A stretch of DNA of 53,262 bases, counting the filler, from Catajapyx aquilonaris (taxonomy: Eukaryota), in assembly GCA_000934665.2 (NCBI GenBank). It is 2 parts of 2 records of this genome, joined end to end, with 100 filler letters (N's around TTAATTAATTAA, not from the genome) between each part and the next. Parts side by side here need not be neighbours in the genome. Positions count along the whole stretch, not along the records: positions 1 to 26,629 come from KZ539302.1; 1 more part is not named here. One strand, 5' to 3'. Of the stretch, positions 21 to 53,262 are shown piece by piece; the stretch's first letter is position 1; the number at the start of each line of letters is the position of its first letter. The position numbers and the translations under genes are program-made. Below the pieces are notes generated by a model, which did no database searches, was not told where the DNA came from, and worked only from the letters and a program-made list of their open reading frames with translations.

Positions 21-1517
21 GAGATGGTCATACTCGTAATAATTACGAGTATGACCATCTCATAAGGGTCTTCTTAATTATTAAGAAGACAAAAAAATTT
101 AAATAAAAATGATGGTCAAAAAATTTATTATTTTGATGTTGATCATTAATGGACCTCTGCGATTTATTTTGAACGGCACTTAATATGACAAGTGAAATGT
201 TTACTTGGGATTCCGCAAAATCTGGAGAACCCCTGTTCCCTGATTCAAGAACTCTACTGAGGTAACAATAAATACTGATGTCAATGGCCGAGTAAAATGA
301 TAAATTGCATGAAGTTAAAAGAGATTCCCATTTTAATGGGCTTCTCAGTGAGGAAGGTGCAAGTTTCAGAATCTTTCTTGTCGTGTATGGATGGCCAAAA
401 AAAAATTATCCCGTGGCTGAATGATTGATTGGATATTTGTCGATCCAGAAATAATATTACAGCTGCCACTTCAGCATTTACGTAACTGTTATTAAGCAAC
501 AATATGATAAAATGTTCTCTTTAAAACCGCTGACCATGCGAACTTGACGTGTGGACAGCAGTTGTCAATCCAGGGACACCTGCGGCAATGGTATTTTGGA
601 ATGATGTTGTATATGTCGTATTTCGTGTTGGGCAGTTTATCAGGGTTCATTGTTGAACACAAGAATGGACTAACCGTGTACATAGGTGGTTGGAGCAACG
701 ATGAAGATTCGTCCATAGGCCTCCAGCTATGAGCATGCCTTTCTCAACAGTTGTGTAGGCAGTAGGCTACATGTACACACTCAGGTCTGTTCTTGTGTCC
801 AACAATGAACCCCGATAAACCGCCCTACGCGAAATGCATCATTCCAAAACACCTTCGTTATATATATGTCCCTGGAGCAGTAACAACCCAAGCACGTGTT
901 ACGATGCTCAGAGATTTTGAAGAGAGCATCTATCATATTGTTGCTTATTAACAATTAAGTAAGTGCTGAAATAGCAACTCTAATATTATTTCAGGATCTA
1001 CAAATATCGGTAGGCCTACCCATTAAATCGCTGAGATACTTTACAATTTTATTGGGCATCCATAAATGACACGAAAAATTCTGAAACTTGCTTCTTCAGA
1101 AGCTCTTAAAAATTGTGGTATCTTAATTAATTTAATGTGATTTATCTTATTACTCAATGACATCGGTATTTATTGTTAACTCGGTCGAGTTCTTGAATCA
1201 GGCTTTCTCGCAATATCATATGTACGTGGTAGGCCTTTATTTATTATTAGAGCAACAATATTATTTTGTGAAATTTTGTTGCCAATTTACGGGATTTCTA
1301 GGTTTGGCACACAAAATGCTTTTGATATTTGTCAGATATCGAATTTCTGATCTCCAGATTTGGCAGCAATCTCAAGCAAACATTTCCCGTATTATTTGAA
1401 GCGCCATTCAAAATCAGTAGTAGGGGTCGATTAATGAGTAATATCAAAATATAAAAATTTTGGGAACCATTTTGAATTTAAATTTTTGATTTTCCTGTGC
1501 ACATGTATGACCATCTC
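21..1517. mobile_element. Old non-autonomous TIR element with GAG...CTC termini (possibly Sola-like), containing a degenerate internal palindrome
   Basis: GAGATGGTCATAC at 21-33 and its reverse complement GTATGACCATCTC at 1505-1517. About 355-690 and about 770-1092 are diverged inverted copies of each other. No clean TSD. Confidence 0.5.
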
Positions 1518-1988
1518 ATAGAAAGTGAAAATACCTTTCAAATGCACACATTAAATTTAAGATTAAACCTGATCTTGTGGTCCTCCGAAGTAACAGCATA
1601 TTATGGGTCAAAAATGCTAGAAAATGGGCATATGTGACACCCTGTAGTTTCGAAACCACGCATCGTACACATAAACAAACTCGGTTGCATAAACCCATAT
1701 ATGGGCACTACAGCATACCCGAATATGGTCAAAATCGGAGAAGGTTGTGTGGCCAAGGGCGGCCCCTTTGACGCGGAATCCCCCTTTGCGCAGGGCGATT
1801 TCTGAAAAAATGTCACGTGACAGGACCCATGTGCACTGATCGCGTGGATCCTACCAAAAATTATTAGCATAGGACCAAACAAAACTCCATGCAAAGTTTG
1901 GTGCTTTTGTCCAACTTGTCCCCTTCATCTCGCTAAGAGCCCCCACTATACGAAAAATATGTAAGTGTGTATAACCTTGGTATAACTC

Positions 1989-2290
1989 CCGAATTTCAAG
2001 AAAATCGGTGAGGTTGGAATTTGACCTCTGCCCTCATCAGAATTGGGTCACGAGGTCATTTTGATCAGGTAACTATATGTGCGTTTTTCATCCCTTGGGG
2101 TGGGCTACCAATGCACCGAATTTGAAGAAAGTCCGGTGAGGTCGAAATTTGACCTCTGCCCCCCTCAAAATTGGGTCACGAGGTCATTTTGATCAGGTAA
2201 CTATAGGTGCGTTTTTCATCCCTTGGGGTGGGCTACCAATGCACCGAATTTCAAGAAAATCGGCGAGGTCATAAAATTTCCGGAAAAGGG
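1989..2290. repeat. Tandem repeat, about 127-128 bp unit, about 2.3 copies
   Basis: CCGAATTT(C/G)AAGAAA starts at 1989, 2116 and 2244, with near-identical sequence in between. Confidence 0.8.
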
Positions 2291-3749
2291 GGAAAAAAAA
2301 CTCAGGCCCTGGGGTAATGCAATCCTTCAAAAACTCCGTCATCAAAGGGTTAATATGTTCTGTCTTGATAGACCCTTCTACCCTTGCTGCACATGTTTCT
2401 ATTTTCAAAAATGAACCCTGTGGTACCATATAAAAATATAAAATCCATGTCTTTACCCAGGGGGGGGGGGGGGGATCCGGGCCTTCAATGGCCCAGGAAA
2501 GGTAAATACTGGAACTTGTCATAAACTAGTTGAATACCCCTGGCCTAGTGTAACAATTTTAACTAAAGACACTGACCTTTGCGTTCATGAATTGAAGGAA
2601 GAAATCCAACATGAAGGACTTCCCCAATCGGAAGGCTCCAGCAATTGACACCCCCACGACAGGTTTGTCCTTAAGACTGTTCGTCACTCCCAGGAGGAAT
2701 TCACTCGTTGACTCACAGTGCTTAGCATGGCAAGGTCGGGAACTATTTGAAAAGAAAAAGGTATACAGCCCGTGTTTAACATTGGCAACATCGCATGTGG
2801 TTATCAGCTATAATCTGTTGGGATGGAAGGGGAAGTGACCTTTTACCTTCCCCTCCCCTCCTCTCCCCAGCACATTTCACACCTGTCAATACTAGTTTTA
2901 AAATCTTGTGAGGAATAGCCTACGGGGCTGGATTTTCCACGTTAAATATTGTACACCAAAGTGTAGCAATTTCAAGAAAAGTCCACGAGCTATAAACATT
3001 TTAAAATTCCTTGGTAGATTTTTTGCAATTAATTTTAATGCTGACTACGGGTTTGTGTGGCCCCTCAGGTTCATTATTAAAATTAATGTCCTGCTAAGTA
3101 ACATACCGTATAAACGTGTAGTGGCAACAATAATATTTTTACCAGACCCCACAGAAATCCACAGTCTAAGGTGTAATCAGATTTATTTCCGTTGTTAATA
3201 GCCAAATCAACTTAAACTTTGGTCCGCCTAACTCCATTGTTACACTTCACAATTATCTATTCTAAAGTTCAGATAATCATAACCGTGACTTTTTATTACA
3301 TTTTGTTTATTACCCCACCACTCCATTTTTAGGGTGGGCGAACTGCACTGAGGTTGGGCAAGTATTACATCGCTAAATATGATTGAGGTACAGTACACCA
3401 CATGGTCCGCTGTAGGAAATGCAGAGGAACAACTCCGAGAACATCACGAACGCTGAGCACCAATAAATACATCGAGAGTGCATACTGGCTTCATTCTCTA
3501 GACAAAGTCCTATTTGGTCCAATTCTACAGAAAAGCTGTTGCATTCCAAAGTGAATATTGACATCAGTCCCTGAAGCACCTTCTGCCCACAATGTCCATG
3601 TAACACATCGGAAAGACCTGTGGCTGCTGCAATTTTTATGAAATAGACACATCAAAACAATCCTACGGCCCGACACGACATGTCGACATGCATAATATAG
3701 GCTATGCACATCCCAGCACATCCTCTTCTCCCACTGACTACATTTTCCA

Positions 3750-3824
3750 GGAGCCATATACTCATCAAGGTCACTCGCAATCGACTTTGTCGATTGCGAG
3801 TGACCTTGATGAGTATATGGCTCC
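3750..3824. repeat. Perfect hairpin: 36-bp arms, 3-nt loop
   Basis: GGAGCCATATACTCATCAAGGTCACTCGCAATCGAC, then TTT, then its exact reverse complement. Confidence 0.95.
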
Positions 3825-3916
3825 AGGGTCGAGTAGAATGCTGGGACGGATGCAGGACTGACAAGCAATTTAATTCAAGTGTACAGTAGTTCTTGTTGTA
3901 GCCCTACGATCATATA

Positions 3917-4482
3917 CAGTTGAATCGGATATAACAGCCTCGGCTATAACGGACTGTCGGTTATGACAGACTCGAAATGCATGCCCCGCCATACTTCCAC
4001 AAGGTCTTGTGTATTTTTCTCCTGATATAACAGACTCATTTTCACCTTATCTCGGCTATAAGACACCATTTATTTTGGCCCCTGAGTGAGAAATATGCTG
4101 GTTTTGATTACTCATCTTTTTTTCCCCATGCGAGGAAAGCATTGCATAGCCTACTGGAGTGGAGGCGATTTTTTTACCTGTCACTGATACTCTTGCCGAA
4201 AAGGTCAAAATCATAACTATTCTTGTGCATTTGGCAAAAGAAAATAACACATGTTTTTGGGCCTGCCTAGGAAATGGGTGAGCTAATTTCGCATTTTTGT
4301 GGATCATATTGTAATAATTTCATTAATCAGTATGCAGTAGTGTGCACTGCTAGCATGCATATATTGAAAATGGAAAACTTTGCGCATTCTTGAAAAAGCG
4401 TAGTTTTGGCTATCAAACAGATCTCGGTTATGACATACTTTTTCCGCCGTCCCTTGAAGTCTGTCATATCCGGTTTCAACTG
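3917..4482. mobile_element. pogo/Tigger-type MITE (family P), copy 1
   Basis: TA|CAGTTGAATCGGATATAACAG ... CTGTCATATCCGGTTTCAACTG|TA. Homologous copy at 36008-37117. Confidence 0.8.
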
Positions 4483-6574
4483 TAATTGAATCAAATGAAC
4501 GGAAATGTAGTTAGGAACATTTCGGCATGTCAATATTTTCATCTATAGTGCAAAAAAATGCTACGAATCAGCACAATAATTTGTTAGCAATTTTATTTTG
4601 CGTTTTAGGTTAAAACTATTGTTATCACAATGTTCCTGATTTCATTCCCGTTCATTTGATATGCATAAGAACTCCACTTGAAATAAATTGCCCGTCCTGT
4701 TCAATTTATCGTTGCCGACACATGTGGTTGCAATAATATCTCCGTGGGAGATTCTTTTGCCATTCTCCTGTACGTATGCACATGTTTTTTAATATATGAA
4801 TAACTTATTTATATATCAAATTCTGAGATTGCCTAGCCACCATCAGCCTTCGGCTTGCCATGACCCTGCTGGATAAGTTGCTTTCCCCCGAAAGGTGGAA
4901 AATCGAGCCAAGAAATTACTCAGAAGATTATAGCAGATAAGGGCATGAGGCGACAGCCTCGAGTCGAGAACAGCTGCATTGCCAAGTTGAACGCGCGTCG
5001 ACTCCAGCGCTCTCAGGGAGACAAGTCGTGCACTACTTACACCCGAAATGGCCGGAAAAGCTCCGGTTTGCACCATCAACTTATATCCCCGTTATCTCCA
5101 CTATGGATCACTAGATTTAATTGAAACAAACGGCAACTTGCACCCAAAGAGTGTGAAAGTGATACTAGTGGAAGGATTTTTTCTGCAAATCCCTAGTTTA
5201 CGAATGGCAATTTTTTTCATCCTCACCCCAGTTTCCTGCCTGTTTAGCACCCTAAATGTTGATTATTATAAATAATTTGCAAAATGTAATCCACTGGTCT
5301 CAATTTCCTACTCATGCTCAATCATTTAATATTATAGTTGACAAGATTACGCTAAGTAGTGTAGGAGAAACAGGGGATATAAGTTACATGGGATACGCCT
5401 CTCAGAGCACTTTCGTTCAGCTTAAAGCCGGTTCCTTCCTTTTCCACTATGGTGACAGGCTTGCCCACCTCAGATGTTCTGTCCACTCTCCCTTTTGTGT
5501 AAAAAAATTTAATAAGTATCCTAACTAATATAATAAAATTACACTTAACACATACTAAACTAAATGTTGGTTTAAGACCTACATTTAAACTGTGTTGTAC
5601 TTGAAAATACTGGCTTGGAGGTTGGTACAGATGTGTCTTCCAGGTCCGACATATCTACTTTTTCCCAAGATTGCAAATCATCTGCATCATCAGGCAAACA
5701 GTGGCCAATGCGAGGCCCTATTAAATCCCTAATGGAAGTAAAACCAATCAGTAATAAATTCGACCAATATTGGAACAATACTACAACTAAAAAAGACATT
5801 ATTATGCTTTTAAAAAATTAGTTTGTGCGGATATCTATTACACGCACCATACATTGATGCTGATATTGTGCTACAAATTTATATACGTTTTAATAATGAT
5901 GTTCAAGTAAACTCACTTCCTTCTGATCTGGTTCACACTTTCATTCAGTTCACTGGCGACTGATTCTACCACACTTAGCAAAGTACTACGAGGCTCAACA
6001 CTGGCTGACTCATCTGTCCGTACTCCCACCGCTGACCTGCTGATCCCTTCCACCATACGATACTCGGTCAGAGCCCTACAAGTAGTTTGAAAAAATCAGT
6101 ATTGATATTAAAGATCCAAAACAAACATTACACAAACTTCACCTGATCTGGTTCAAATACTTGCTCATCGCACCTGCAACTGATCCGACCATAGTAGCCA
6201 TAGTGCGAGACTGGCCTCCGTCGGACTTGTTACTTGGTACTTCCATTGTGGGCACGATCCCTTTCAACAGGGCAGTGTTGCTTTAAATACCTGACAGGAT
6301 TATACGAGAAGATTTTCTCGGCTGCTGCTTCGAGTCCCTCCATGCCAACATCCCTCTGGATAGCTACACCACATGATGTGGCGTTGACTCTTGTCAGGCG
6401 ATCCCCATGAGGCCTCATGAGTGCCGCCTTCACCTGCAGAGAACGGCATCATTAGTAACGTATCTTCGTATCTCATTGTTATTTTACCACATTATTATTT
6501 TACCACATTATAACTACGAGATGATTGTTAGGTGGCCATTGACTCTTTGGCTAATACGTAAAAGTGTTACATGC

Positions 6575-6900
6575 AGGGGAGGCGGAGTGGTGCTGCGGTA
6601 ACGTATGCGCCCACGGATGTTAAGGTCCCGGGTTCGATCCCAACCCGGGGAGACCCCCTTCATCTCGTGCAGAGTTCATGAGTCGTCTCTGACTTCGTCT
6701 CAGGTGGAATTTCCAACAGACTAAACCACCCGGGGGAGTTCACTAAAAATGGCCACGTTAAAGACTAAGGTACTGCACTTGCACATCCCCTCCTGTCATC
6801 CTGCCCGTGGGCCCAGGAGCTTCAACAATAGGATTCCCAAAGTTGTACCAACGTTAAAATAAAGGTCTGGCAGAAAACCCCTAGGGCTACGCCGATCACC

Positions 6901-6954
<54 letters not shown>
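6575..6954 (+). mobile_element. tRNA-derived SINE (head type A) with (ATT)n tail
   Basis: tRNA-like head with B box GGTTCGATCCC. (ATT)n tail at 6902-6954. 13-bp TSD AAGTGTTACATGC at 6562-6574 and 6955-6967. Same head at 11051 and 21466. Confidence 0.9.
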
Positions 6955-6955
<1 letters not shown>

Positions 6956-7631
6956 AGTGTTACATGCTGGAGTAGCCTAATAATACAAAGAAAGTTGCAT
7001 TTTTCAGATAAATCTACCGAAAAACGGGATGAATAGGAACTAGTGAATTGCAAAATTGCGTTTGTAATGTACTGTACACTTGACAAGAGTACAAAAAAGT
7101 GACAATACTCCAATCTAATGTATATGTAAATAATTTTCCAATCTGAGAGGTTTAAATCCGAGGTTGTATAGCGGAGACAGGGCAGTAGTGTGTATATACT
7201 ACATAAATTGCGAAATATGCGCATTTTGACCAAAATATGCAAGATTGGAGATTTTTTTGGAAGCTAGGTGACTGTTCCATTAAATAAAGTAGTAAATGTA
7301 TAAATTACATAACAGAGCATTATTCCAAAAGCATGAGTTTAAAAGTTCATATTGGTTTTCTGAAAGGTGCCTGAAATATGCTCATTGAAACCAATGAAAA
7401 AAGTGCATCTTTCCATGAATGTTATTCATCTGAATGACCCTAATACGTATAACCTGCTCGGTGAAACCGACAATAAATATGATGAAACAACCTCAATAGC
7501 AACTGATTCATAAAGATTAGTGAGTAGGCCTCCACAATAAGGTCCTGGCTTATTGATGCATCCCGCAGCACAAGCTCAAGGTGAGGCAGGTGTGGGCGGG
7601 CGGGCAACACAAAGCACATACGATATAGGTC

Positions 7632-7940
7632 AGGTGCTATCATGGCCCTACGGGTACGGAAATGGTCCGGACATTTTTGATGGTAGGCTGAAGGCTATGC
7701 CGACCACCAATCGAATGCGCTATATGTGATGCTTGTGCAAGCCTGAGATTTATAAATTACACTGTTAGAGGGAAAAGTGCTGGAAAAGTGACTAAGTTTA
7801 TATGATCAAGACACTTTTCTCTCAAAAAGTGATAAATCTTAAACTCGCACAAGCATAGCATAGCGCACTCGATTGGTGGTCGGCTGATAACCCTCAGCCT
7901 ACCACCAAATGTCCGGACCATTTCCGTGCCCATAGCACCT
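7632..7940. mobile_element. Palindromic MITE
   Basis: AGGTGCTAT...ATAGCACCT ends with about 120-bp imperfect inverted arms, flanked by GTC on both sides. Confidence 0.7.
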
Positions 7941-8857
7941 GTCGTATATAGAGAACGGTGATGGCGGGAGGACTGGAGGACAGGGCGAGGTATATCCCAG
8001 AGCACTGACACTTTCCTTGCTCAGTCGTTGTCGCAGACTTTTGGGGATTATGCGGACTCATGAGGCTGATGCGGACTGATCCGGCTGATGCTGTGATGCT
8101 GTGATGAGGCTGATGCGGACTGATCCGGACTGATGCGGCTAATGCGGCTGATGCGGTGATGATAGGTCCGGACTCCGAGGATGTCTTCTCTCAGTTGTTC
8201 ACTAACTTGTTCACTATCACTATAATCACTTCAGTCACTTGGAGGTGGAGCTTGGAGCAGCTCCCATTCCTTCCAAATCCCCAAGTCCCAACACAATAGA
8301 CAGTGACCCCTGTGCCGTACTGACTGACTATACTGAGTACTGACGAACAATGAACAACCAACAACAAACTGACCGACCGAATAGACCGATTCCTCTCCAG
8401 TCGACAGGTATATATAGGCCTTATATAAGCTTAGGCCGGGGCGTGTTGCGTCCCCAAGCTAAATTCAAGGTACGACCCAAATCAAACCAAAGAGGTTTTT
8501 GACCAGGACTTTCACTGTTTCACAGGCCTATGAGAAAAACAAAATGCTGCCTAAAGGACGAAACCAGTATAGTAGGCCTATATTGGCTTAGTACAAGTCA
8601 GTGACCGATCACAATACCGTGGACTTTTAACACTCAACTCAGGGACATTGACAATGCCTGTGTCTTTGCATTCCCTCTCCGATAAGATGCCCAGAAGAAA
8701 AGGGTTGGCTATATAATCGCAATAAGAAACTTCAGTTGGTACGAATTGCTTGCTTCCATTTACGTGCACCTGAGAACACTTCTTCGTAAATAACGGCTGC
8801 AGAATTTCGGGGAGGGCAGAGACAAGCAATAAAGTAGCCTATAGCTATACCGAGTAC

Positions 8858-9070
8858 TTTATAATTGATATTAGGGAGGTTGGCCCAGCTTTCCCTCTTC
8901 AACCTCCAAGGATAGGGAAGGAAGGAAGCAGCTGTGGCCTATTATACGGAAGTGACCCTGGAATATTATCCTCGGAACACAGTGGAAAACCACAGTCAGG
9001 ATCGCCGGCCCCGGGATTCGAACCCAGGACCTCCCGATTAGCAGTCGGATGCCTTATCCACCATGCCACA
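8858..9070 (-). mobile_element. tRNA-derived SINE (head type B)
   Basis: Minus-strand B box GGTTCGAATCC. Body GGAAGGAAGCxGCTGTGGCCTATT shared with 17939-18144 and 28849-29133. Ends approximate. Confidence 0.8.
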
Positions 9071-9099
9071 AAATGAGAGTATACATGCTTAAATTAGGC

Positions 9100-9558
9100 C
9101 CTGGTAGACCAACAAAATAGCACAACTCTTGTTCACTAGTCATCATAACTAACTACTCATAACTCATAAATTCCAGAAGTTCTTGCGGTGATGAGGTCAA
9201 AACAGAGACAACTGAGATCCATCTGGCCGTCGATGAAGTTCAACAACTGGGTTGCATCGTACATGCTCTCCAGCTGATTTGGATAGTGTTCCTAACATCT
9301 GACCAACAGCTGCAAATGCAAGCGCTTAAATATTGCTCTAATTACCAAATGTACTACTTACCTATGATGCAATCATATACACTTGAGTAGTAAGTGTAAG
9401 TACTGCTGCTCTCAGCAGTGGTGGGCTGGACGAGCAGGATAGCCGGACCCTGCAATTAGTATTTTATGAGTAATTTTGGCTGTATGTAACTTTATGCAAA
9501 TGCACTCACGGTGAAGGTACAATTACTGATACCATAATTTCTGATAATAACTCACCAT
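9100..9558 (-). pseudogene. ERH: Enhancer of rudimentary (ERH)-like paralogue, spliced, frameshifted in exon 3
   Basis: ATG|GTGAGT at 9558-9556. 88-nt exon 9449-9362 reads GPAILLVQPTTAESSSTYTYYSSVYDCII-G (ERH: [30 protein letters not shown]). 52-nt GT-AG intron. Exon from 9309 reads AVGQM, then a frameshift, then EHYPNQLESMYDATQLLNFIDGQMDLSCLCFD (ERH: YDISQLFDFIDDLADLSCLVY). 3' end approximate. Confidence 0.8.
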
Positions 9559-11050
9559 TTTCAATGTTTGATTGGTGCTCACACTTCCAGAAGCTTCGAG
9601 CCTGCAAGTTTCGAACAGAATAGAACAAAATTGAACCACAATCGAACGCAATAGGACAAAATCGAACCAAATGGAAGATAACAGAACCTTTCCCTTGGAA
9701 TAATTCAGTCATTCGAATGACCATAGATTACAGCTTATACCTAAGCTCTAAACAGTAAGTGCTGCCACCTCAATTCGGATAGTGAGAATTGAAATACAGA
9801 GCGCTTATTTGAATTAGTCTGGAACAAATAAAATGGACAATACTGCCACAATAAAGGGCAATACACAGTAAAATGGACGCTTATATTTATTGCAACACAA
9901 AACACAAACGAGCTTTGCGTAGTGGCGATATCGTAATGAGCGAACAGGAACAAACGACAGGGTGTCCCACAAGTGACTCACATATAGTACAATGATATAG
10001 TACAATGACATAGTACAATGTGTAGCCTACAATAGGGTGGCGCGAAAAAAACGAAAGTTGTCCGATTAAATCGCACGGGGTGTCAAATGTTGTGTATGGG
10101 ACAAGTATAACACTGGTGATTTTTTTTTAGAATTTTCGTATTCATCTTCATTAATTATTTTGTCGCCAGAGCCTTCAAGTTTCGCCATTTTTATGAGAAC
10201 AACACATATTACATTATGCAACAAGATTTGTGGCCATGGAAATTCATCGCTATTTCCATGTTGCTTAGGTCACTGGTAACTCATATAATTGAGCATTCAT
10301 TTTGTCTGGGATATTTGTTTTTGACCTTGGGGCAGTTGCAGTCAAAAAACCAAATTCCTCTAAATAGTGCATAGCACCACCTGGCGCTGGTATATAGCAG
10401 GTTTTGCCCAAGGTCTATTGCCTACATTGTACCTGTGAAAAATGCATGAAATGAGAACTACTCTAATTACCTCCAAAAATAGTTAAAATCATGGTCATAG
10501 AGCCCTCCACTTCCCCCCATCGCACAGGGGCCATTCATGAGAGCTCTATGCTCCTGTAAATTACTTCAGAATGTCTGTAACAAAATGTGACATTCCCATC
10601 CACTTTCTGAGCAAGGTTTAATTCCTTGACTTGAGTAGCTATCATCAGGGATTCTGAACAGCCTCCCCCCATGTGGCACATTGATTGAAGGGAGCCAAAT
10701 TCAACTGCCAAAAATGTGCAGGTAACATAGGAGTTACAGTTGAAACAGAGGTATGATAATGCATAATCGTCAGACATTGTGCTCAGGTGTGACATCGAGA
10801 GGAACTAGGAAATAGACTACTAGCAAAATTGTAATAAATATCATCCGATTACTGCTGATATAAAATAATTTCCACCTAAAACAGAAGATAGAATCTACAG
10901 GTCAGCTGACAAAATGTATGGAGAAGATGTAATACCCCAATATTACAGTATTACAAACATTACAGAAATAATCTTGAAGCGACGACTATTCACAGTCACA
11001 CATTACAGACAGAACCCATTGCTACACAGCAACAAATCATATCCAGTAAG

Positions 11051-15079: not shown

Positions 15080-15156
15080 CTGGAAAAAAAAGAGAGAAAG
15101 AATCAACAACATTTTCTTGCATTTGAAAATTACAATTGAATAATTTCCACACTCAC

Positions 15157-15888
15157 AGCCTTGTTTTTAAGCAGAGTCCTCCTCCCTATTCCTGTGGCCT
15201 TCCTCCCACCACCTCTGACACATCCTCCACCCCTCCCCTTCCGTGATTCCTCTCTTCCTGTGGCCTTCCTCCCACCACCTCTCACACGTCCTCCACCCCT
15301 CCCCTTCCGTGATTCCTCTCTTTCTGTGGCCTTCCTCCCACCACCTCTGACACGTCCTCCACCCTTCCCCCTCCTCGATTCCTCTCGTCCTCTGGCTCCA
15401 TCAGAAGATGTCTTGCTCGTACTGGGACCTCCTTCTTCTGGTTGCTTCCTCCCACCACCTCTGACATGTCCTCCACCCTTCCCCCTCCTCGATTCCTCTC
15501 GTCCTCTGGCTCCATCAGAAGATGCCTTGCTCGTACTGGGACCTCCTTCTTCTGGTTGCTTCCTCCCACCACCTATGACATGTCCTCCACCCTTCCCCCT
15601 CCTCGATTGTGAGTAGAGTTCAGCGAGGATCCTCACTGCACTCATCTCCCAATCTGACTCCCCATCATCATCCTTGCTCGTACTGGGACCTCCTTCTGGT
15701 TGCTTCCTCACCGCACCCTTCTCACAGTCTGACTCCTCATCATCAGCATCCTCTTTCTCTTGCGAAGAGGGGCAAGTTAAGCAGCGGATCTCTCTCAACT
15801 GAGTCCTCCTCCAGTACCCTGCGTCCTTGGCGTGGCATCTTCCACACTCTGGCTTGAAACCCCTCCACTTGCCTTTGGGTGGTGGGGT
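15157..15888 (-). CDS. GATAD1: GATAD1-like exon: GATA-type C4 finger plus RGG-rich repeat linker
   Basis: GFKPECGRCHAKDAGYWRRTQLREIRCLTC resembles GLKPTCSVCKTTSSSMWKKGAQGEILCHHC. Ends GIGRRTLLKNKA (GATAD1: GKGRRHIFKLKN). TTGCAG acceptor, GTGAGT donor. Confidence 0.85.
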
Positions 15889-15892
15889 CTGC

Positions 15893-15936
15893 AATAATAA
15901 TAATGACGACGCTAACCCAACATAACCCAACATATG

Positions 15937-16005
<69 letters not shown>

Positions 16006-16019
16006 GATAATAATAACAG

Positions 16020-16082
<63 letters not shown>

Positions 16083-16153
16083 CATGATAATAATAACAAT
16101 AACATATGATGATGATGATGATGATGATGATTATTATTATCATAATCATAATA
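15893..16153. repeat. Compound (AAT)n/(GAT)n microsatellite, intronic
   Basis: Visible trinucleotide runs. Confidence 0.95.
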
Positions 16154-17067
16154 ATCTCAGTCTGCCTCCTATACTTGGATGACCCTGCCAGTAGACCAAT
16201 GGCGGTTCTCAAACCGTTGGGCGCGCCCCCCTGGGGAGACGCGAAGGGGTGGCCGGGAGGGGGGGGGGGGGGGGNGGGGGGCGAATCCAAAAATTATGTG
16301 ACTCGAAACAGGCACAAAAATCGCACCGATTAGGTAAGAACTACTTCTCAGAGCTTATAAGCCCTGAGAAGTAGCGTGCAGTTCTAAAAGCCAAATGTGC
16401 AGTTCTGAATAAGGATTTGTGCAGTCAGATAATAGCAGACAAATCTGTTATATCCGGATTCGATCAACTGCCCTTGCACATTGGCACTGCGGGAAATATG
16501 AAGAAACCGATCTTTCTACTTGCTTATAGAGCTTGCCAAATGTAATACATACAGTGACACTTAAAAGAACAAAAGATACAACAAACAAAAACAAGGGCAA
16601 TGTCAGCGACACAATATTGCGAACGGTTAAACATAGTAATAACAGAGGCAAACGAACAAAACATAAATTATTACCATGGGCATATATTGGGCAACGTTAA
16701 ATCAAGATGGTCGGCAAGGTGTGGAATTAGCGCTTGTTTACTCTAATCCCCCCCCCCCTTTCGGGACAACAACCAAATATACATTTTCCCAATGAGGTCA
16801 TAGAGATGTGAATAAAGCAGACGAGAACCCAATGGGGGAAAGCTAATGGGAGGTGGGATTCATTTGAATGTGTTTGGCAGTGTTACAAAACAATATCAGC
16901 GAATTGAAGCAGGTGCGTGGTTTTCAAAAAGAAATAGTAGGCCTACAATATTATATTTATGTATTTGGTGGATCTTTGTCAGTTAATACATTCACGTAAG
17001 ATTGTGTGACCTTGAACAAAAAGTTATTTTTTCCGCATGTGGCTGGCTTATTGCGTTTGGGGAAGAC

Positions 17068-17375: not shown

Positions 17376-18850
17376 CTAGTCAGATATTAACGGGGTTATT
17401 CCAGACCATGTAGGTCCTTAAACCCCGGGCCCCACATAGGGCCTATATCATCACTCTAAGTCCCTTTCATCGTGGTCCACCAGGGGCGGACCATCCGTTC
17501 GCTTCCGAATCGAACCCAAGCCGTCATAGGGTCGAGACTCGACCATCGGGACGACACCCAGAGGAGCCGCCCGTCCCACGATCGAGTCCCAAACCCGTAA
17601 GGTCCGGAGCTCGCCCCAATCCCGTCCGACAGGCCTCTCGACTTCTGCCTGGTCACCCAGGCCTCCGTCGAGCCCCAAAGGGAAAGGTCCCGTCAGAGAA
17701 ATCGGGGCCCGCTCCGGACCGACCCCCGTCATGTCCCACCTGTGGGACCCCACTCACCCCAGCCGTACTCTATCATCTCTGTGTCTCACTCCTCCTCCGA
17801 CTCCATCCCCGGCTCCGACCCGCGTAGCTTTCATTGTCCCCGGCGTTCCCCGCGACGACCTCCGCCTCGACCACCGACTACACCCACTCTGCCGTCGGTG
17901 ACGCTCGCCAATTGTCGAATGACTGCCAGGCAGAACCTTTTATAATATATTGATATACGAGTATTTAAGGAGGTTGGCCCAGCATTGCCTTTCAACCTCC
18001 AAGGATAGGGAAGGAAGGAAGCGGCTGTGGCCTATTATACGACGGAAGCAACCCCGGAATTATCCTAGAAAGACCGTGGAAAACCACAGAAAACCACGGT
18101 CAAGGTTGCCGGCCCCGGGATTCGAACCCAGGACCTCCCGATTAGCCAGGCAGAACCTGTTGAACTCGTGGGGCAGACAAGACAACAGCACCTCCCCGGA
18201 GCAAGGCCAGCCGCACCCGCTGCAGACTGCGTCCCTCAAAAGGGCCGCCCACGCCTGCTCCACCTCCGGTAGCAGACAGTCCAGCAGGACGTGCGATGCG
18301 TCCTGACTCCCCTCACCGCACGGGCATGCGCCGCACCCGTCCGACAGCAGATGAAACCTCTCCAAGTAGGCCCGGAAGGGGCCGTGGTTCACAAGGATCT
18401 GGGCGACGTGTCCTCTCCAGGTCCGGCCGACGACCACGTTCGGGAGCAACTCCCTCGTCCACGTACTACCTTCCCGCTCCCATTCCTCCTGCCAAAGCCG
18501 AATGCCCTCCAGATGTCAATGTGTAGCGATGTTTCGTTGGTGCTCTCCCAAATAGAGGTGGCCAGTCTGCCGCTCCGTCGCCGCTTTAGCCGCCTGGTCC
18601 GCCAACTCGTTGCCGAGTGTGCCGACATGCGCACGGACCCAGCCCAGGCGGACATGAGAGCCCCGGGGACCCCGCAGCGCACCCTGAGCGCGAGCCACCG
18701 CCGCGCCGGCTGCGAGGCCCCAGGGCTGGCAATGGCCTGCAGTGCCGAAGCTGAGTCCGAGAAGACCCAGGTACGGACGTCGCCGATCGGTCCGTCCCTA
18801 ACCGCCGCCTCCACCGCTCGCACCACCATCTCCAGCTCAATGTCAAAAAT
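17376..18850 (-). mobile_element. 5'-truncated non-LTR retrotransposon (RNase H plus CCHC knuckle; I/R1/Loa-type group)
   Basis: Frameshifted pieces VFSDSASALQAI, WVRAHVGTLGNELADQAAKAA (RNase H) and NHGPFRAYLERF...CPCG...HVLLDC (CCHC). GC-rich island. GCACCA duplicated at 17370-17375 and 18851-18856. Confidence 0.88.
17939..18144 (-). mobile_element. SINE type B (5'-truncated) inserted in the LINE
   Basis: 14-bp TSD GCCAGGCAGAACCT at 17925-17938 and 18145-18158. Removing it restores the LINE frame FNRFCLAVIRQLAS. Confidence 0.9.
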
Positions 18851-23257: not shown

Positions 23258-25108
23258 CTAGTCGCCACAAAATGCCAGATGAAGAGGGTGGTGGGCAACG
23301 AGGTATAAATTAATAACTGTCACTATCACACTTAACAATGTTCTTCGTTGTTTTGTTGTTAAAAAAATCTCTGTTATGGACATTTGCCTACTCTTAGATT
23401 CAAGGATTCAATTGTCACAATCGAGTGAAACCCTTCTTTCGATACGTCTGGTCGTCTGGTAGACGGAGATCAGGAAATTGAGCATTTCTGTACATGTGGC
23501 CTACTCTCGACCTTTCGGCTGGGAAATGAGAAAATTTTCCATACTCGCCAACCTGAACTTAGGGAGACTGAAAATGCATTGATATCCCATGGTAAGGCCC
23601 TGCCAGCACTTCGAGTTAGGGAAGTTTATTTCCTATTATTTTACATTGTGACCAACCAGCAAGCTCATCATTTTCTTCGACTTAGGGAAGTTCGACATAG
23701 AAGTTTTACTGTATCATTAGTGGCCCACCTGGCTGATGTAACCCTTTGGGGCCTGACAGTCAATGGCTGTACAGTCTTTCATGAGCATTTAATACATCAT
23801 GCTAAATATCTGGTACCAGTAGGCTACATGTTGAAACACATTCAGCAGTGTGCTCTAGAAGCAGCCTGCATAAAAGCGGGCCACTCCACTCTTTACAGTA
23901 GATATAAATAACCCTCAGTGTGAAACGTCATTTAGCCATGCTTAACTTGCAAATTGTGGTCTTTTTTGGAACCCATATCGTTTTTATACTATAAACTTAC
24001 ATGGACAGCAAAAGTAAGAATATTTATGCCTCCGAAATTCGGTCTGGATTACAAGTGACATCCGGAAAAAATCGATCCCCTGTGATGCTTGGTTGACTCA
24101 TGAGACACAGTTCCCTGTTTACCTGTAGTTGTTCTTGATAATGTACATAAATAAAAATAGAGATATTGAAATAAATACTTTATACTTCTCAATAATGGGA
24201 AGGGTTGATCACTAACAAGTAAATGTAATTACATGGGTCTATTGGGTCATTTTGCTTTCTACTCTGCCATTGTGCATGTCACGGCATGAATTTTCTGTGG
24301 CTGATTAGGGTCAGAAAAAAACGAGTCGCTAACTTGAATCATATGGGGTCCTTCTTGGACCCCAAGATGACTAGTGAGCATTTTAATGGCATAACTCACT
24401 TGTAGCCTCTTTTTTTGTGGCTCATAATTTTCAGGCATGAAAGTTTTTTGGAGGAATGCAGGTGTGGGATATTTCATTTTGACAAAAACTTACTTCAGCA
24501 TGGTGATATAAGTATACCATGGGGTCCAAAAAGGACCCCACGTTTCAAGTTGAGGGATAAGTGACCACATTTATTTCAAATGATAGCACTCTTTGAAGTG
24601 TATGGTATGTACAGTGGGCTTAGGTGTAGCAATTACTGTTTTCCTGGGTGATGCAGTGGCTGTTGGATTGACCTCCATCAAAGTTGCTTTGGCAGCCGTG
24701 CGTAAGACACAGTTTACATGGCATTGCTATGCTACAAATAGTTAAGTATGCCATTCCCTCTTGGATGGCAATGAATTACGTTGTCTAAATTCACATTTAG
24801 CGTACCAGGAAAAGGCACGCGCAGACATTTTTTTGGATGTTTTAAATACGAGGGCTGGGAGACGGTGCGCTGAACCTCCAAAAAATGGTTCCTGGAAGGG
24901 CTGGAAAGGTTGCCACACCCATGACTCCTGTTCATTCAGCTCCAAGAGGATTCACTAGATAATGTGTGACTATCTGCCGACCTGCACTGTATTTGTGGCA
25001 AAAAAATGAATTGTAAATCATTTTAGTATGGTCCTCGAATAAGCAAACTCATTCATTTGGTTACATAATCGATTCATCATGTGCTTAATCTTGTTTCAGA
25101 ATATCATC

Positions 25109-26221
25109 ATGCCGTCTCCAATGGCACATTTGCACGTCACTGCCCCGTCAAGCTTTGTTGAGATGCTTCACATGATTAAAAAGGACATCACAATTGTGTG
25201 CTGTGATGGACATGTTGCTGCCCACAAGCTGGTCATCTACACAATGGTTCCATATCTACGGACACTACTGAAGGAGACACCATCGGCAGATGTTATTTTC
25301 TTGCATGAGTTCAGTAAGGTTGTAGTAGAATGTTGCCTTCATCTGATTTATACCGGGGATCTCAAGCTGAGTGTGAGCCAGGTTGTTGAATTCGAAGAGT
25401 TGATTCTGGCTCTAGACTTTAATCCTAATATCAAATGGTCTCGGACAGGGGAGGTGTGGTGGCCGTGATGGTAACGTCACGGCTTGCTGAGTGAAAGGCC
25501 CCAGGTTCGATCCCCGCCTGGGGAACTTTCCTTTCACCTGCGTCGGGAGGGTCTCTGACCTGCACCGAGGAGGTGTCTGGCAACCTAACCTCCTGGGGAA
25601 CAGCACATGACCCATTAGCTACGACACTGCACCTTGCACCCATGTTCCCTCCCCAAAAATCCCTATTCTTTCCCTTTGTCCCTGTTTCCTTGCACCGGTG
25701 ATTGAAGTGAAAATAAATACAGATAAGTGATGGTGGTATGCCACCCCCCTATAGCTCCCATAAGGGACATCACGGGGTAAAAAAAAAAAAAGTCTCGGAT
25801 ACCTGAAGCGGAAACTAGCACTATTGAAGATGATGGTCCTAGTTTCTTTTCTAGTCCAGATTCCACACCTTCTGGTAGTGGAGTAGTTGTAGAGTCAGAA
25901 CCAGAGAACCCACACATTAAGTGTGATTCATGTAATGGGCAATTTTCTACAGAGGAGAAAGCTAAGCATCATATTGAACAAGTTCATGTCACCTCTGAAA
26001 TAATTGTGTGCATGTTTTGTAACCAAAAGTTTGTAAGTACGACCAAACTGTTGTCTCGTGAGAAGATGTGCAAGATAAAGCAGGAAAGGAAGCTGCTTAA
26101 AAGTCGCAGAGGTCCTCGGGAACTCCCGAGACTCCATGCTGGTGTGACAATTTGCATAATAAGTTGTGTCCTCATTGGGTTTATTTTCTTATACTTAAGC
26201 CAACAACATCAACCAGTTTAA
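25109..26221 (+). pseudogene. BTB/POZ-C2H2 zinc-finger gene interrupted by a SINE (252 aa when the SINE is removed)
   Basis: BTB motifs DITIVCCDGHVAAHKLVI and CLHLIYTG at 25109-25445. After deleting the SINE plus one TSD, the frame continues KWSRIPEA...CDSCNGQFSTEEKAKHHIEQVH...CMFCNQKF...VTICIISCVLIGFIFLYL to TAA at 26221. Confidence 0.8.
25446..25791 (+). mobile_element. tRNA-derived SINE (head type C) with poly(A)
   Basis: B box GGTTCGATCCC. Core TGGCAACCTAACCTCC shared with the 27915 and 40460 copies. TSD GTCTCGGA at 25438-25445 and 25792-25799. Confidence 0.92.
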
Positions 26222-28848: not shown

Positions 28849-29133
28849 AATAATAATAATAATTCATACCCCGTTATCAGCCTATCGGCTCTTTAGGGGG
28901 GAAGTTTTGTTTTGCCTGGAACTCTTTGCTTTCCTTTTACTGCGCTTTTCGGGATAGGATAGGGACGGAAGGAAGCGGCTGTGGCCTATTAATTACGGAA
29001 GCAACTCCGGAATTTTCCTGGAAGGACCGTGGGAAACCACAGAAAACCACGGTCAGAGTTGCCGGCCCCGGGATTCGAACCCAGGACCTCCCGATTAGCA
29101 GTCGGACGCCTTATCCACTATGCCAACCTGCTT
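28849..29133 (-). mobile_element. SINE type B with (ATT)n tail
   Basis: Homologous to the 8858 and 17939 copies over head and body, with a different 3' tail. Ends approximate. Confidence 0.82.
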
Positions 29134-32110: not shown

Positions 32111-32171
32111 CTGTGAAAATGCAAGCTTTCATTAGTTCAAATGTTGACAGGCATTTTGCAGCATACCTTAC

Positions 32172-32814
32172 CTGAAAGATGGCTGAATGTCTTCTGACTT
32201 GGTTGACCAGGATTCTATCCCAAATGATTCAGGGCAACTGGTTTCATCACCAGACATGGGATAAGGTGTGAACTCCAGGCTATCTGTATGTGGATCTTTG
32301 ATGGATATAGCACCCTTCAACTTGCACAATAGTTTTGGCTGGTATGGCTTGCTACCAGCTTTTAAAGCATCGACAACAAACTGGTCCATGAAACTAAGGG
32401 TAAAGTCTGGCTCCCTTTCTGAACCTTCAGGCATAATGTTCAGATGGCATAGAACTTGCAGCTCTTTTGATTGTAACTTCAGATGCATGTTTGCCATATT
32501 ACTGGTTTTATTAAGCAGCTCTGTGACTTGTGTACCTGATTCACCAGCCTGTAGAATAACCGTTTGCAATGTATGCAAAAGAGACAGCCATAGTTCCACT
32601 TGCGTTTCTGTCAGTGTTCTTCGTAACCATGTCTTCCCTAATGCAACAAGGTCATCTAGCACTATCAGAGACATTGCTTTACCCTTGCAACAGTAAGATA
32701 TAATCCAAAGGCATAGTTCCACAACAGAATCAAACACATTTGTAGATGCCAATATCTTCAGAGCAAGTTGCAACACCATATTCTTGAGATCTACATCTTG
32801 CCCCGCATCTGAAG
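32172..32814 (-). CDS. AP4E1: AP4E1-like exon
   Basis: TLSFMDQFVVDALKAGSKPYQP and LEFTPY resemble AP4E1 SLSFLDGFVAEGLSQGAAPYKP and LNFEPY. Alternative in-frame acceptor at 32808. Confidence 0.82.
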
Positions 32815-33244
32815 CTAAAGGAATCATATTAGCTGTGATAATATATTTATGCCATTTACACCTATTACACTATCCAAAAATAAGTACCGGTACTGTTTGT
32901 TTGTAAAATAGTTTTAAGAATTTCCCCAAAAAATCAACATAGCCACATGATGGCACTAATCTTTAGCTACTATGCACACAAACATATTTACATATTTTTA
33001 AAACCCTGGTACTGCATAAAGTGACCAAGAGATGAACGGATAGGCTTTGCAGTGAGTGTCGATGTAGACTGGCAAGATCTCATACCATGGTTTTAAAATG
33101 CTTAGATTGATATGAGATTTGTGTGCAGCACTAGCTAAGAAGAGGTGCCATCATGTGCCTACGTTGACTTTCAGACACAGTTCTTTAAAAAAAATTACGG
33201 TAATAGCCAAACAGTATCTACTTTTGCAAAATGGTAATATTTAC

Positions 33245-33834
33245 CTGTCGTTAATATGTCCTTGATTCTTTTTACTATTTGACCTACACAGGTCTCAGAT
33301 GATTTTGCAAGCACTTTGAACAAAATACCAATGGACACAGACTTGTTTGATCCATGCTTTCTTGATACATCAATTATGCTATGAGTTACTTCTTGCAGTA
33401 AAAATGAATCCTGGCATTTTTCCATGTAATTGAGCATGTGATTGCATATTATATAAGCATTTTCTTCTCTTGCTAGGCATGCTAAAATCTGCAGAGATTT
33501 GTGCTGGATAGAAAAGTCAGGATGGCACAAGGCACGCGTCACAACAGTCCGGAAATCTGATGGAAGCTGGACGGCATGCATTTTCAATAAGGCACCTAGA
33601 AGGCTGAGACCAGTATGGCAGAGGTTTTCATCTGGGTTGCCCATCAGCTGGCTGGTGTACTGAATCACAGTTTCTAAAGGAAAGTTTGAGCATGTCTCCA
33701 ACATGGTCAGGATGCACTCATGGGCAGTAGCCACATATATAGGTTCATACTGCTTGTAGCAGGCCATAAAAGTTTCTTGGAGTATAGCTTCTGTCTGCGA
33801 GCATTCCTTATCACTGGACAAGAATCGAAGAAGT
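33245..33834 (-). CDS. AP4E1: AP4E1-like exon (adaptin N-terminal trunk)
   Basis: Long helical ORF with adaptin-like HPDFSIQHKSLQILACLAREENAYIICNHMLNY. TTGCAG and GTAAA boundaries, consistent phases. Confidence 0.88.
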
Positions 33835-34077
33835 CTGCAAGAGATAGGATGAGTTAAGGTTTGTGTGATTTAAATTCTGACTTAATTACGACTTCAAACA
33901 TCCATCAGTGTAATGGGACTGAACAACAGCTGTGATATTTGAATGAATGTTTTGCAAGATGGATGTCCATTTTGTGGACACAGAACAGGGATCTTTATTT
34001 ATTACTCAGTGAACTAGAATAATATGAATATTAATAAATTATCCTTTGTACAGTTATGTGTTAGTTTACCAAGTCTA

Positions 34078-34490
34078 CAGGGTGGACCAACTTCAAGTGT
34101 CGTTTTATAACGACGATTAATAGCAGTGATTTTGCGATGACGTAGCAGCGACGTGTAAAATGTCCAACTTCGGCGCCATCGAAAATATTAGCTGCCAATA
34201 GCAGCACACATGTAATCAACCCTGCTGCTGGGTTGACCTGGAAAAAAGTAGGTGCACACATGACCTGAGATGCGCCTGGGTGAAATGCCTTCTTTGCGGA
34301 CTTCCGGATTGGCATTGGTCCGCATGTGGTTGCACTCGTTGCAGCAGGTTCATTACATGTACGCTAATATTGGCAGCTAATATTTTCGATGGTGCCGAAG
34401 TGGGACATTTTACACGTCGCTGCTACGTCATTCGTAAAGCGCTTCTATTAATAGCCGTTATAAAACGACACTTGAAGTTGGTCCACCCTG
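34078..34490. mobile_element. Palindromic TA-flanked MITE in an AP4E1 intron
   Basis: TA|CAGGGTGGACCAACTTCAAGTGTCG ... CGACACTTGAAGTTGGTCCACCCTG|TA with about 150-bp arms. Confidence 0.9.
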
Positions 34491-34794
34491 TATATCCAGC
34501 AACCCAAAAGCTAATAAAGTGATTCCCATCGAAACTCTAGCCTACCAAAAATTCAATCACCTGATTTCAGGATCTCCAAGGCAACTGGAGCCCAAACAAC
34601 AACCCAGATGGGATACACACAGAAAAGACCACTTCATTTAAAAGTAGGCCTCAGCAGAATGCTATTCGTGAACCATTTATGCCCAAGTCATAAGCCTGTT
34701 ACCACAAAACCTTGGGAAATGGATAAGTGGTTTTACCATATGATGACAGAAGAGTTCTGATGGTCATATATTGCATAGTAATCATTAAGCTCAC

Positions 34795-34928
34795 CGCATT
34801 ATGCTCATCTGCATCCAGGGTGCAACCATGGACTTGTAGTGGTATTCTGCTGGGAGCTTGTTCTGGAGAATCTGCTTTTGTATGGCAATAATGGCAGGCA
34901 CCAAGTCTGTCAACAGGAATGCATGCTC
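34795..34928 (-). CDS. AP4E1: AP4E1-like exon (frame not shown in the ORF track)
   Basis: EHAFLLTDLVPAIIAIQKQILQNKLPAEYHYKSMVAPWMQMSIMR resembles LKQVVGGKLPVEFNYHSVPAPWLQIQLLR. AG and GTGAG boundaries. Confidence 0.92.
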
Positions 34929-34988
34929 CTGGGGGAAAAATATCAGTTGATCTACCTCTATTTACATGTGAATTCAATCACACCATAC

Positions 34989-35344
34989 CTTGGCTAAATC
35001 CTCCAATAACTGCAAACTGGCAGCAACAACTCCAGGGTTGGCATCTCCCAAGGCCTTACGAACAGGCACCATAATAAGATGAGACTGCTCCGGACACTTC
35101 CTAAAGATGTAGTGGAGTGCTACTAAGGCCTTTCTCCTGATGTAATCAGATGTGTGGCCAAGTCGTTCACAAACCATAGGTAGCACAGTTGGTGTCAACT
35201 CAGCCGGAAGAAAGTGGCAGATGGCAACCAAAGCCATGTTGACTTCTAAAGGATTTGTGCTGGCCAGATCACGAAGGAGACCATTCACAAACAGGACTAC
35301 CCATTCATCCTGTTCATGAAAGAAGAGGCAACAAGCAAGGTAAC
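34989..35344 (-). CDS. AP4E1: AP4E1-like exon
   Basis: GYLACCLFFHEQDEWVVLFVNGLLRDLASTNPLEVNMAL...IRRKALVAL...RKALGDANPGVVAASL matches the AP4E1 N-terminus. Confidence 0.93.
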
Positions 35345-35418
35345 CTGGAAAGCAAGGATGCTCACATCACTACCATACATACAACTACACACTGCCATTC
35401 ATACAATAAATTGCCTAC

Positions 35419-44897: not shown

Positions 44898-45421
<524 letters not shown>

Positions 45422-49657: not shown

Positions 49658-50101
<444 letters not shown>

Positions 50102-50558: not shown

Positions 50559-50632
50559 GTCCCTGTAGCTCAGTGGCCAGCGCAATTGTCATTCATAGAC
50601 AAAGGACCCAGGCTTGATTCCTGGCAGAGATG
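50559..50632 (+). pseudogene. Degenerate tRNA-like sequence (tRNA pseudogene or solitary SINE head)
   Basis: GTCCCTG/CAGAGAT acceptor-like stem, TAGCTCAGTGG A box, TTGTC-ATTCATA-GACAA anticodon arm, damaged T loop GGCTTGATTCC. Confidence 0.6.
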
Positions 50633-51450: not shown

Positions 51451-51759
51451 CGCGAAGTAATTCAGAATATAAACGGCCGAGATCACAGAGGTGGGCAATT
51501 AACTTAATTATGATTATACAAATGGCGATTTCAATGTTTCAAATATATCATTAGATAGACAAAGATTTGCACTATCTAGGGTTCAGAGGGGGATTTTTTT
51601 GGCCTCCGGGAAGTGTCATTTAAAAATTCACTTTGCGGCATAACGTTGGCAACTAGTCAAAAAATGACACTCCTGGTTTGGGAGCTTGTCATAGCCCCCA
51701 CAAAATTAATATTATATTTGTAGTGTCATGAGCTGTTATTGTTTGTTTTTTTTCCACAG

Positions 51760-51815
51760 CATCAGTTCCAGCTCAAGCGCAGCCAGTAACTCCTGGACCT
51801 CTGTCACCCCATATG

Positions 51816-51847
<32 letters not shown>

Positions 51848-51863
51848 ACAACAGCAGCAGCAA

Positions 51864-51895
<32 letters not shown>

Positions 51896-52101
51896 GCAAC
51901 AACAACAGTCCCCACCTCAACAACCCCAAGCTTCTCAACAGCAACCTCAACAACAACAGAATGGGTTTGGAAATTTGAGCAACCAAGTGGCTGGCAGCCA
52001 AACGTTCCCAGGAACACAAGCCACATATGTTGGGGGTAGCACACTCACATACACCCAGAACATGCAGCCACCTGACCCTAGGTCTCACCATCCTGGTTAC
52101 T
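51760..52101 (+). CDS. SMAD4: Medea/SMAD4 coding exon 6 (polyQ linker)
   Basis: TTTTTCCACAG acceptor in phase 1. ASVPAQ...M-Q31-SPP...STLTYTQNMQPPDPRSHHPGY. T|GTAAG donor. Confidence 0.9.
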
Positions 52102-52332
52102 GTAAGTTGGTGACCCACATGGTCTTTGCTATTGCTTGAAAAAAAAGAAGATAATCTGATTGTATGACCATTAAATTCTGATTCATTTTTATCTGATAGG
52201 ATTGAGTTGAATGAGGTCTACAATTTGGAGGTCCAATGGACTTGTACGCATAATCTCAATAATGAATCATGTTCCACATTGATGTGAGACAATTACTTTT
52301 TATCCATGAAAATAAATGATGCACTCTTTCAG

Positions 52333-52579
52333 GGCCTCACCAGCAGCAACTACAACATGACATGTCCTTAACGGGCATGCTCTCATCTCAGCCAGCTCCT
52401 GAGTACTGGTGTTCCATTGCCTATTTTGAATTGGACACTCAAGTAGGAGAGACTTTTAAGGTTCCATCCACCTGTCCCAGTGTAACAGTGGATGGTTATG
52501 TTGACCCTTCAGGAGGAGATAGATTTTGCCTGGGAGCACTCAGCAATGTCCATCGAACGGAGTTGAGTGAAAGAGCCAG
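52333..52579 (+). CDS. SMAD4: Medea/SMAD4 coding exon 7 (MH2 start); gene continues past the window
   Basis: (W)PHQ...[60 protein letters not shown]. Confidence 0.97.
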
Positions 52580-53262
52580 GTGCGTGTTGCTAGGCAATAA
52601 TATTGATGGTTGTGGGTAAGATCCTGTAGTTATAGGTGGGACCCCTCACAACTGTAGCACTTATGTGTCAAATTGCATGTCTAGTTCATAAATTCATAAA
52701 AATGCCAAAAGCTTGAAAAGTAATGTTCAAGTTGGGTTAAATGTTAGTCATACAACTTTTACCATTTTCCATGTCAACCAGAAGAGGCATTTGTGTGTAG
52801 TCAGAAGAAATATGGTTTCCAAGTTATTGATCTGTAATATTTTGGCATATGACATTTCCAATATTTTTGCATGCAAATAATCAGAGTTTAATACCATTGT
52901 GTTACAAAGTTCTATTCTTCTGCAAAGTGACTGTCATGAATATATACAGGGAGTGCAAACATTTGCAGATAATTGCCAAGTTGGATAGGACACGCAAAAG
53001 TTGTGTAGGGATGTCAAAGTCATTTTCGAGTGCGTTCCATAGTTTTTACATGCTGCACCTTTTAAAGTTTTTTTATGTCACATTCATCCCGCCAGCTTCA
53101 AAGTAGCAAAGCCAGCAGGAAGCCCTCATCATAATATGGGCTTAGGCTCATAATGCATTGTCCATGTACTATCACGGTCAAAAAGATTGTCGGACTGTTA
53201 TGGAATCGTCCGCGACTTTTTCTCCCGCCAATCAGTGTGCCAGGTGCAGGTGATTTGGGCGA

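Follow-up and report, generated by a model that had tools for sequence, protein, structure and literature searches.

A probable unprocessed pseudogene of a diverged ERH paralogue in Catajapyx aquilonaris

The window analyzed here is a stretch of 53,262 nucleotides (nt) from the genome of Catajapyx aquilonaris; it contains 312 N, with gaps at approximately 17.1-17.3 kb and 26.6 kb. A locus resembling ERH lies on its minus strand at 9100..9558. The first-pass annotation of this DNA had described an ATG followed by GTGAGT, an 88-nt exon, and a third exon, all colinear with ERH, and every coordinate and junction of that description was borne out on the minus strand. The start codon ATG (9558-9556) is followed directly by the donor GTGAGT (9558-9550 for the two together), which places a phase-0 intron after Met1. 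Intron 1 (9555-9450) is 106 nt long and its 3' end reads ttgcag. Exon 2 (9449-9362) has 88 nt, made up of 29 codons and base 1 of codon 31, with GTAAGT coming next; it translates as GPAILLVQPTTAESSSTYTYYSSVYDCII (29 aa) with one base left over. Intron 2 (9361-9310), 52 nt in length, sits in phase 1 inside codon 31 and runs from GTAAGT to ttgcag. The GT and AG signals are therefore intact at both introns.

Exon 3 completes codon 31 and, over 9309-9295, continues in the entry frame as A-VGQM, the equivalent of human residues 31-35. Directly after AVGQM, at 9294/9293, the frame shifts by +1. From there the entry frame encodes unrelated residues until a premature TGA stop (9199-9197, minus strand), 36 codons into exon 3 (ORF 9197..9325), and this out-of-frame tail had no Pfam match. 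In the +1 frame, the rest of exon 3 (9291-9160) is ERH-like over the equivalent of human residues 42-74 and is followed by 11 unmatched codons; the sequence of this frame ends in a stop at 9159-9157. The uninterrupted reading frame expected of ERH is thus not present at the locus.

According to the review PMC10605862, human ERH has three introns: phase 0 right after Met1, phase 1 in Gly31, and phase 2 in Val71. The same review describes the Gly31 intron as widely shared and the Val71 intron as not universal. Compared with that description, introns 1 and 2 of the locus have the same position and phase as human introns 1 and 2. At the third position there is no donor, as TT, and not GT, stands at the phase-2 point of the codon equivalent to Val71. 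From there the frame runs on for 15 codons and then stops; the alignment to human ERH extends over the first four of these and not over the other 11.

Both coding pieces match the Pfam ER family (PF01133). Exon 2 (29 aa) aligned to profile positions 3-28 of 98 (18.8 bits, E = 1.8e-3), exon 3 in the +1 frame (9291-9160, 44 aa) aligned to positions 42-73 of 98 (22.8 bits, E = 9.9e-5), and exon 3 read through the break with an X reached 24.5 bits over positions 39-73 of 98; each of these fragments, scored separately, is lower than the Pfam ER gathering score of 25 bits. Identity to human ERH is 50% for exon 2 (13 of 26 residues, human 4-29) and 44% for exon 3 in the +1 frame (14 of 32 residues, human 43-74). 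The identical residues include ILLVQPT, TY, SV, C, YD, QL, FID, and DLSCL. PDB matches for either piece were to human ERH structures only (1W9G and others). No Pfam ER match was obtained among the 209 other ORFs and frames tested (103 ORFs in 3004-9152, 50 in 46-3044, two other-frame pieces of exon 3, and 54 at 3-15 kb), and blastn and tblastn detected no second ERH-like copy within the 53-kb window. With two independent and colinear matches on one strand and canonical splice signals between them, homology of the locus to ERH is secure. The Pfam matches, taken with the human intron positions, uphold the earlier proposal of a diverged, ERH-derived duplicate that has introns and intact GT/AG boundaries.

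The 44-aa exon 3 peptide was also compared with large protein collections. In a collection of 5.8 billion protein clusters, none of the proteins of 78 aa or more had words in common with it; one longer candidate came up, no candidate was scored, and there were no near candidates; among 1.84 billion representative proteins there was no true relative. The sole match among the representatives, P0002, is a 303-aa tandem-repeat protein with five matched stretches and no ERH likeness, and was judged to be a chance match. The ESM Atlas gave no usable match to the same peptide.

The first-pass annotation attributed the frame shift to one indel near 9293-9296. A frame-breaking lesion after AVGQM is real, but it is better described as a 14-nt deletion. 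This description comes from a hand alignment to the 30-letter loose-end consensus of a sister copy found in the reads (copy C, described below), relative to which the window lacks 14 nt in codons 36-41 at 9294/9293, hence the +1 shift; after its 14 extra letters, copy C agrees with the window at 15 of the next 16. We considered whether copy C is an allele of the locus and judged this unlikely, as it has five mismatches in 60 nt against window positions 9294-9353 and nothing downstream matching at 90% or more. The context of the break is not a homopolymer. Rescue by an alternative acceptor was rejected by eye, because the AGs located 11 and 18 nt into exon 3 both give the wrong phase.

The break was checked over 9050-9750 in the Logan contigs of three DNA runs (X1, X2, and X3), all of one sample, possibly the assembly's own. 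Each of the three runs contains a 301-nt contig that equals the window over 9050-9339, with 0 differences and 0 gaps, and that spans the break, reaching 244 letters past it on one side and 46 on the other. No contig with an insertion at 9294 was present among the three DNA runs, with the proviso that contigs drop rare variants. A fourth run of unspecified kind, X5, had no contigs on 9050-9750, which says nothing on expression. The frame break is not an assembler artefact; a private or heterozygous allele is compatible with these one-sample reads.

These contigs answer the call in the first-pass annotation for a read check of the indel, and they speak against one of its two readings, a live paralogue with an assembly indel. 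We consider it quite improbable that the locus is a live, fast-evolving ERH paralogue in which the break is a sequencing artefact or one null allele and the product is approximately 85 aa or longer. Such a gene would be expected to keep its splice sites intact and both of its ERH-like frames open, as the locus does, and the sister copies B and C are themselves in frame over the part of them that is visible; however, the break recurs in all three DNA runs outside any homopolymer and with no contig carrying the insertion, two very large libraries hold no matching protein, and even when read through the break the product would be without profile positions 74-98.

That C-terminal part is the second defect of the locus. 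The ER match ends at profile position 73, no recognisable coding sequence remains for the last strand and helix (positions 74-98), and the full domain of approximately 100-110 aa is therefore incomplete. Profile 74-98 was matched neither by the remaining two frames around exon 3 nor, in the 9 kb downstream, by any of 153 ORFs on the minus strand with a length of at least 20 aa (103 in 3004-9152 and 50 in 46-3044); a last exon of approximately 30 aa that has diverged could score under the hmmscan filters or sit beyond the window start. The last-exon stretch appears to be absent or unrecognisable. Neither this loss, nor the missing GT at the third-intron position, nor the existence of several ERH copies had been part of the first-pass annotation.

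A SINE whose head resembles a tRNA begins approximately 90 nt after the stop (8871-9068, minus strand), in the same orientation as the ERH-like locus; an Rfam tRNA match of 31.5 bits covers 9011-9068 (minus strand) in the head. Two further copies lie at 17965-18146 and 28956-29125, the three being 81-84% alike, and similar peptide strings near 11.1, 21.5, 25.6, 28.0, and 40.6 kb suggest still others. The third copy overlaps a tRNA-Ser(GCT) called by ARAGORN at 29060-29131 (minus strand; Rfam, 39.7 bits), and this 'gene' may be a SINE head. A 9-/19-nt tandem repeat of the ATGCGGCTG type, with approximately 12 copies, occupies 8050-8161, approximately 1 kb downstream of the ERH relic. Further downstream on the same strand, ORF 2562-2807 matches the N-terminal domain of guanylate-binding proteins (GBP; 29.1 bits) and, weakly, a RING/U-box-like domain; this ORF probably represents one exon of a GBP/atlastin-like gene.

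Elsewhere in the window, 15130-16293 (minus strand) is a 387-aa open frame with low-complexity runs and repeats of a glycine/arginine-rich unit of approximately 38 aa. At 25 kb on the plus strand, a BTB/POZ exon (25043-25465, 29.4 bits) is followed by ORF 25781-26218, which has C2H2-like Cys/His spacing and no Pfam match at E <= 0.001; the two may belong to a BTB zinc-finger gene. Exons of an adaptin large-subunit gene lie at 32171-35366 on the minus strand (Adaptin_N, 53.8 and 68.9 bits). The plus strand carries a SMAD gene whose introns are long (44898-45341, 49658-50101, 51732-52139, and 52320-52616; MH1, 81 bits; MH2, 69.9 bits); its linker exon has a long polyglutamine run, and the wording of its N-terminal exon looks SMAD4/Medea-like. 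ARAGORN also called a tRNA-SeC (tca) at 50559-50632 (plus strand), inside the SMAD gene region. It has no Rfam match at the gathering threshold and is probably a false positive.

Read depth indicates that parts of the ERH-like locus are repeated in the genome. The single-copy baseline was 31.7 in X1, 21.7 in X2, and 33.1 in X3, and the depth at 9330, in intron 2, was 466.7, 311, and 505.2, respectively, which is approximately 14-15 times baseline; the true copy number over intron 2 may be half of this depth ratio, as overlapping contigs are summed. No other part of the locus is as highly repeated in the reads as intron 2. The 3' half of intron 1 (about 9453-9505) is multi-copy as well, at approximately 5-7 times baseline (in X1, an identical 47-nt contig has a depth of 83 compared with a baseline of approximately 31), and the 5' region at 9602-9697 has 2-8 times baseline depth. 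The exon bodies and the 5' half of intron 1 are at single depth. At 90% likeness or more, the multi-copy stretches consist of the 3' ends of both introns together with the first ~16 nt of the next exons (9290-9361 and 9434-9505), and the single-copy stretches are the exon bodies (9362-9433 and 9050-9289). Non-coding patches are better kept among the ERH copies than coding sequence.

The 5' region itself can be compared with that of another copy, as a 425-nt X2 contig aligns to 9609-9750 with 12 mismatches in 142 (approximately 91%). Within it, TRF identified a 31-nt tandem repeat of 2.5 copies (9611-9687), 53-131 nt upstream of the ATG. The repeat may be a promoter element that the ERH copies share, or a minisatellite unrelated to them.

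Three different contigs leave intron 2 or the start of exon 3 into other ERH-like coding sequence. The peptides given here are hand translations of 30 letters each. Exon 3 of copy B reads M-YEEHLKHQYP; its intron 2 part has three mismatches in 45 against the locus. Exon 3 of copy C, which is at single-copy depth, reads M-FQDHIKEQYP; copies B and C are both in frame over the 10-11 codons visible. The third version continues after the intron's ...cag as GVCKIYE and is canonical-looking, GVCKIYE being how canonical animal ERH reads. At a fourth loose end, the end of another copy's exon 2 and a slightly longer intron 2 are seen. The sample therefore holds at least four ERH exon 3 versions, the locus included. 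Most genomes have one ERH gene, nearly invariant, and C. elegans and Physcomitrium patens have two, as stated in PMC10605862. The locus in C. aquilonaris has the look of a dead gene belonging to a multi-copy ERH family with introns, and not of a lone paralogue; we infer the size and state of that family from the loose ends and read depths.

High copy number over introns and upstream sequence, and the missing last exon, would both be accounted for if a gene fragment (the 5' region with exons 1-3) had been captured and amplified by a mobile element. The depths over intron 2 (approximately 14-15 times), and over the 3' half of intron 1 and the 5' region (2-8 times), agree with this, as do the absence of the C-terminal exon and the SINE that adjoins the locus. 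We nevertheless regard capture as unlikely. The locus is not flanked by terminal inverted repeats (the best pair, 26 nt at 73%, is inside the gene), there is no second copy in the 53-kb window, and none of the 54 tested ORFs with at least 50 aa at 3-15 kb (from both strands above 9560 and from the plus strand alone below 9560) has a Pfam match at E <= 0.01, which means that no transposase, helicase, or reverse transcriptase was seen among those 54. Moreover, the ERH-like coding sequence differs in the three copies with a visible continuation, whereas captured fragments would be identical.

The state of the 5' part raises one further alternative, that the locus is a transcribed relic acting as an RNA or encoding a 67-aa peptide, with its first 35 residues ERH-like, that interferes with ERH dimers. 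We consider this very unlikely. As such a role would allow, the start codon and splice signals are intact, as is the 5' region, which is approximately 91% like that of another copy; against it, residues 1-35 amount to two strands and part of helix 1, in a fold that needs all four strands according to PMC10605862, and the out-of-frame tail is without a family match.

On balance, the locus is probably an unprocessed pseudogene of a diverged ERH paralogue, that is, a copy that was duplicated as DNA and retained its introns. Its homology to ERH comes with both introns retained, and its disabling lesions are the 14-nt deletion, the premature stop, and the missing C-terminal part. The same DNA runs contain three further ERH-like versions of exon 3, seen over 30 letters each, which may come from a parent or sister gene. 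A processed pseudogene (retrocopy) is ruled out by the two GT...AG introns at ancestral positions.

We infer the order of events and the loss of function as follows. An ERH gene would have been copied together with its 5' region and two short introns, and the copy, or its immediate ancestor, would have diverged to approximately 45-50% identity with canonical ERH while still open. The loss of 14 nt in codons 36-41 may then have followed, with the effect that translation from the ATG would stop early, after 67 residues. In its present state the locus is most likely a non-coding relic without protein function. Both ERH-like frames are stop-free over 73 codons, as happens by chance in 2.3% of shuffles and 4.9% of placements. 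These open frames would fit a history in which most of the divergence took place while the copy was coding and the break came later, with a fairly recent death, as the first-pass annotation had proposed. Because the splice signals are intact and both frames are open (2.3-4.9% by chance), decay has been slight, and the locus could be a very young pseudogene or could still somehow be used.

If it is a pseudogene, the locus alone is an ordinary one and matters little beyond annotation, where a gene finder could miscall it as a short protein resembling ERH. It is of value in pointing to several divergent, intron-bearing ERH copies in one animal. Between copies B and C, 10 of the 30 coding letters that can be seen are different, most of these changes being non-synonymous, yet against intron 2 of the locus the two have no more than 3 mismatches in 45 and 5 in 60. 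The canonical-looking copy, which aligns to part of intron 2 at 90% or more, differs from the locus at approximately 6 of 20 letters in its first seven codons. Coding sequence that changes faster than a short intron could reflect diversifying selection, intron constraint or gene conversion, or sampling noise, the source of noise being that very short contigs were matched at a 90% threshold.

We tentatively suggest, as a possibility that is open to considerable doubt, an expanded intron-bearing ERH family with at least four exon 3 versions and approximately 7-15 copies as judged by intron 2 depth. It would comprise the canonical gene and a diverged subfamily (B, C, and the dead locus) in which the short introns and 5' region have changed more slowly than coding sequence, notably that for helix 1, which lines the partner-binding groove. 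If true, this would imply that a protein normally frozen and single-copy is under diversifying selection, and live members of the family might have a new partner, as nematode ERH-2 has in piRNA biogenesis. Should some of the copies be intact and expressed, they would represent the second animal case, after nematode ERH-2, of ERH duplicated and repurposed, and a natural experiment on which ERH surfaces can change. Among the papers listed by full-text searching, none concerned ERH family expansion in arthropods; in a sawfly paper, ERH occurs only in an immune-gene table.

Compared with canonical ERH and Drosophila e(r) (PF01133; PDB: 1W9G, 2NML), the locus has the same motif order (ILLVQPT, TY, SV.C, YD.QL.FID, and DLSCL), the same intron 1 (phase 0 after Met1), and the same intron 2 (phase 1, codon 31). 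It departs from them in being only 50% and 44% identical over its two pieces, in its broken frame, and in being without profile positions 74-98 and without a third-intron donor.

C. elegans ERH-2 is a diverged ERH paralogue in the PETISCO/PICS piRNA-biogenesis complex. Like the locus, it is a lineage-specific, strongly diverged ERH duplicate that keeps the intron positions of its parent, as PMC10605862 describes it. Unlike the locus, which is frame-broken and truncated, ERH-2 is intact, expressed, and full length. Any functional likeness to ERH-2 would concern the sister copies and not the locus.

Human ERHP1 and ERHP2 are intronless retrocopies, whereas the locus keeps both introns and the 5' region, which argues that it arose by DNA duplication. 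In the human genome, these are dead ERH copies beside a working gene, as reported in PMC10605862. More than one ERH gene per genome is also known from Physcomitrium patens, which has two copies in the account given in PMC10605862; that case is in a plant, whereas the reads here suggest at least four distinct exon 3 versions in an animal.
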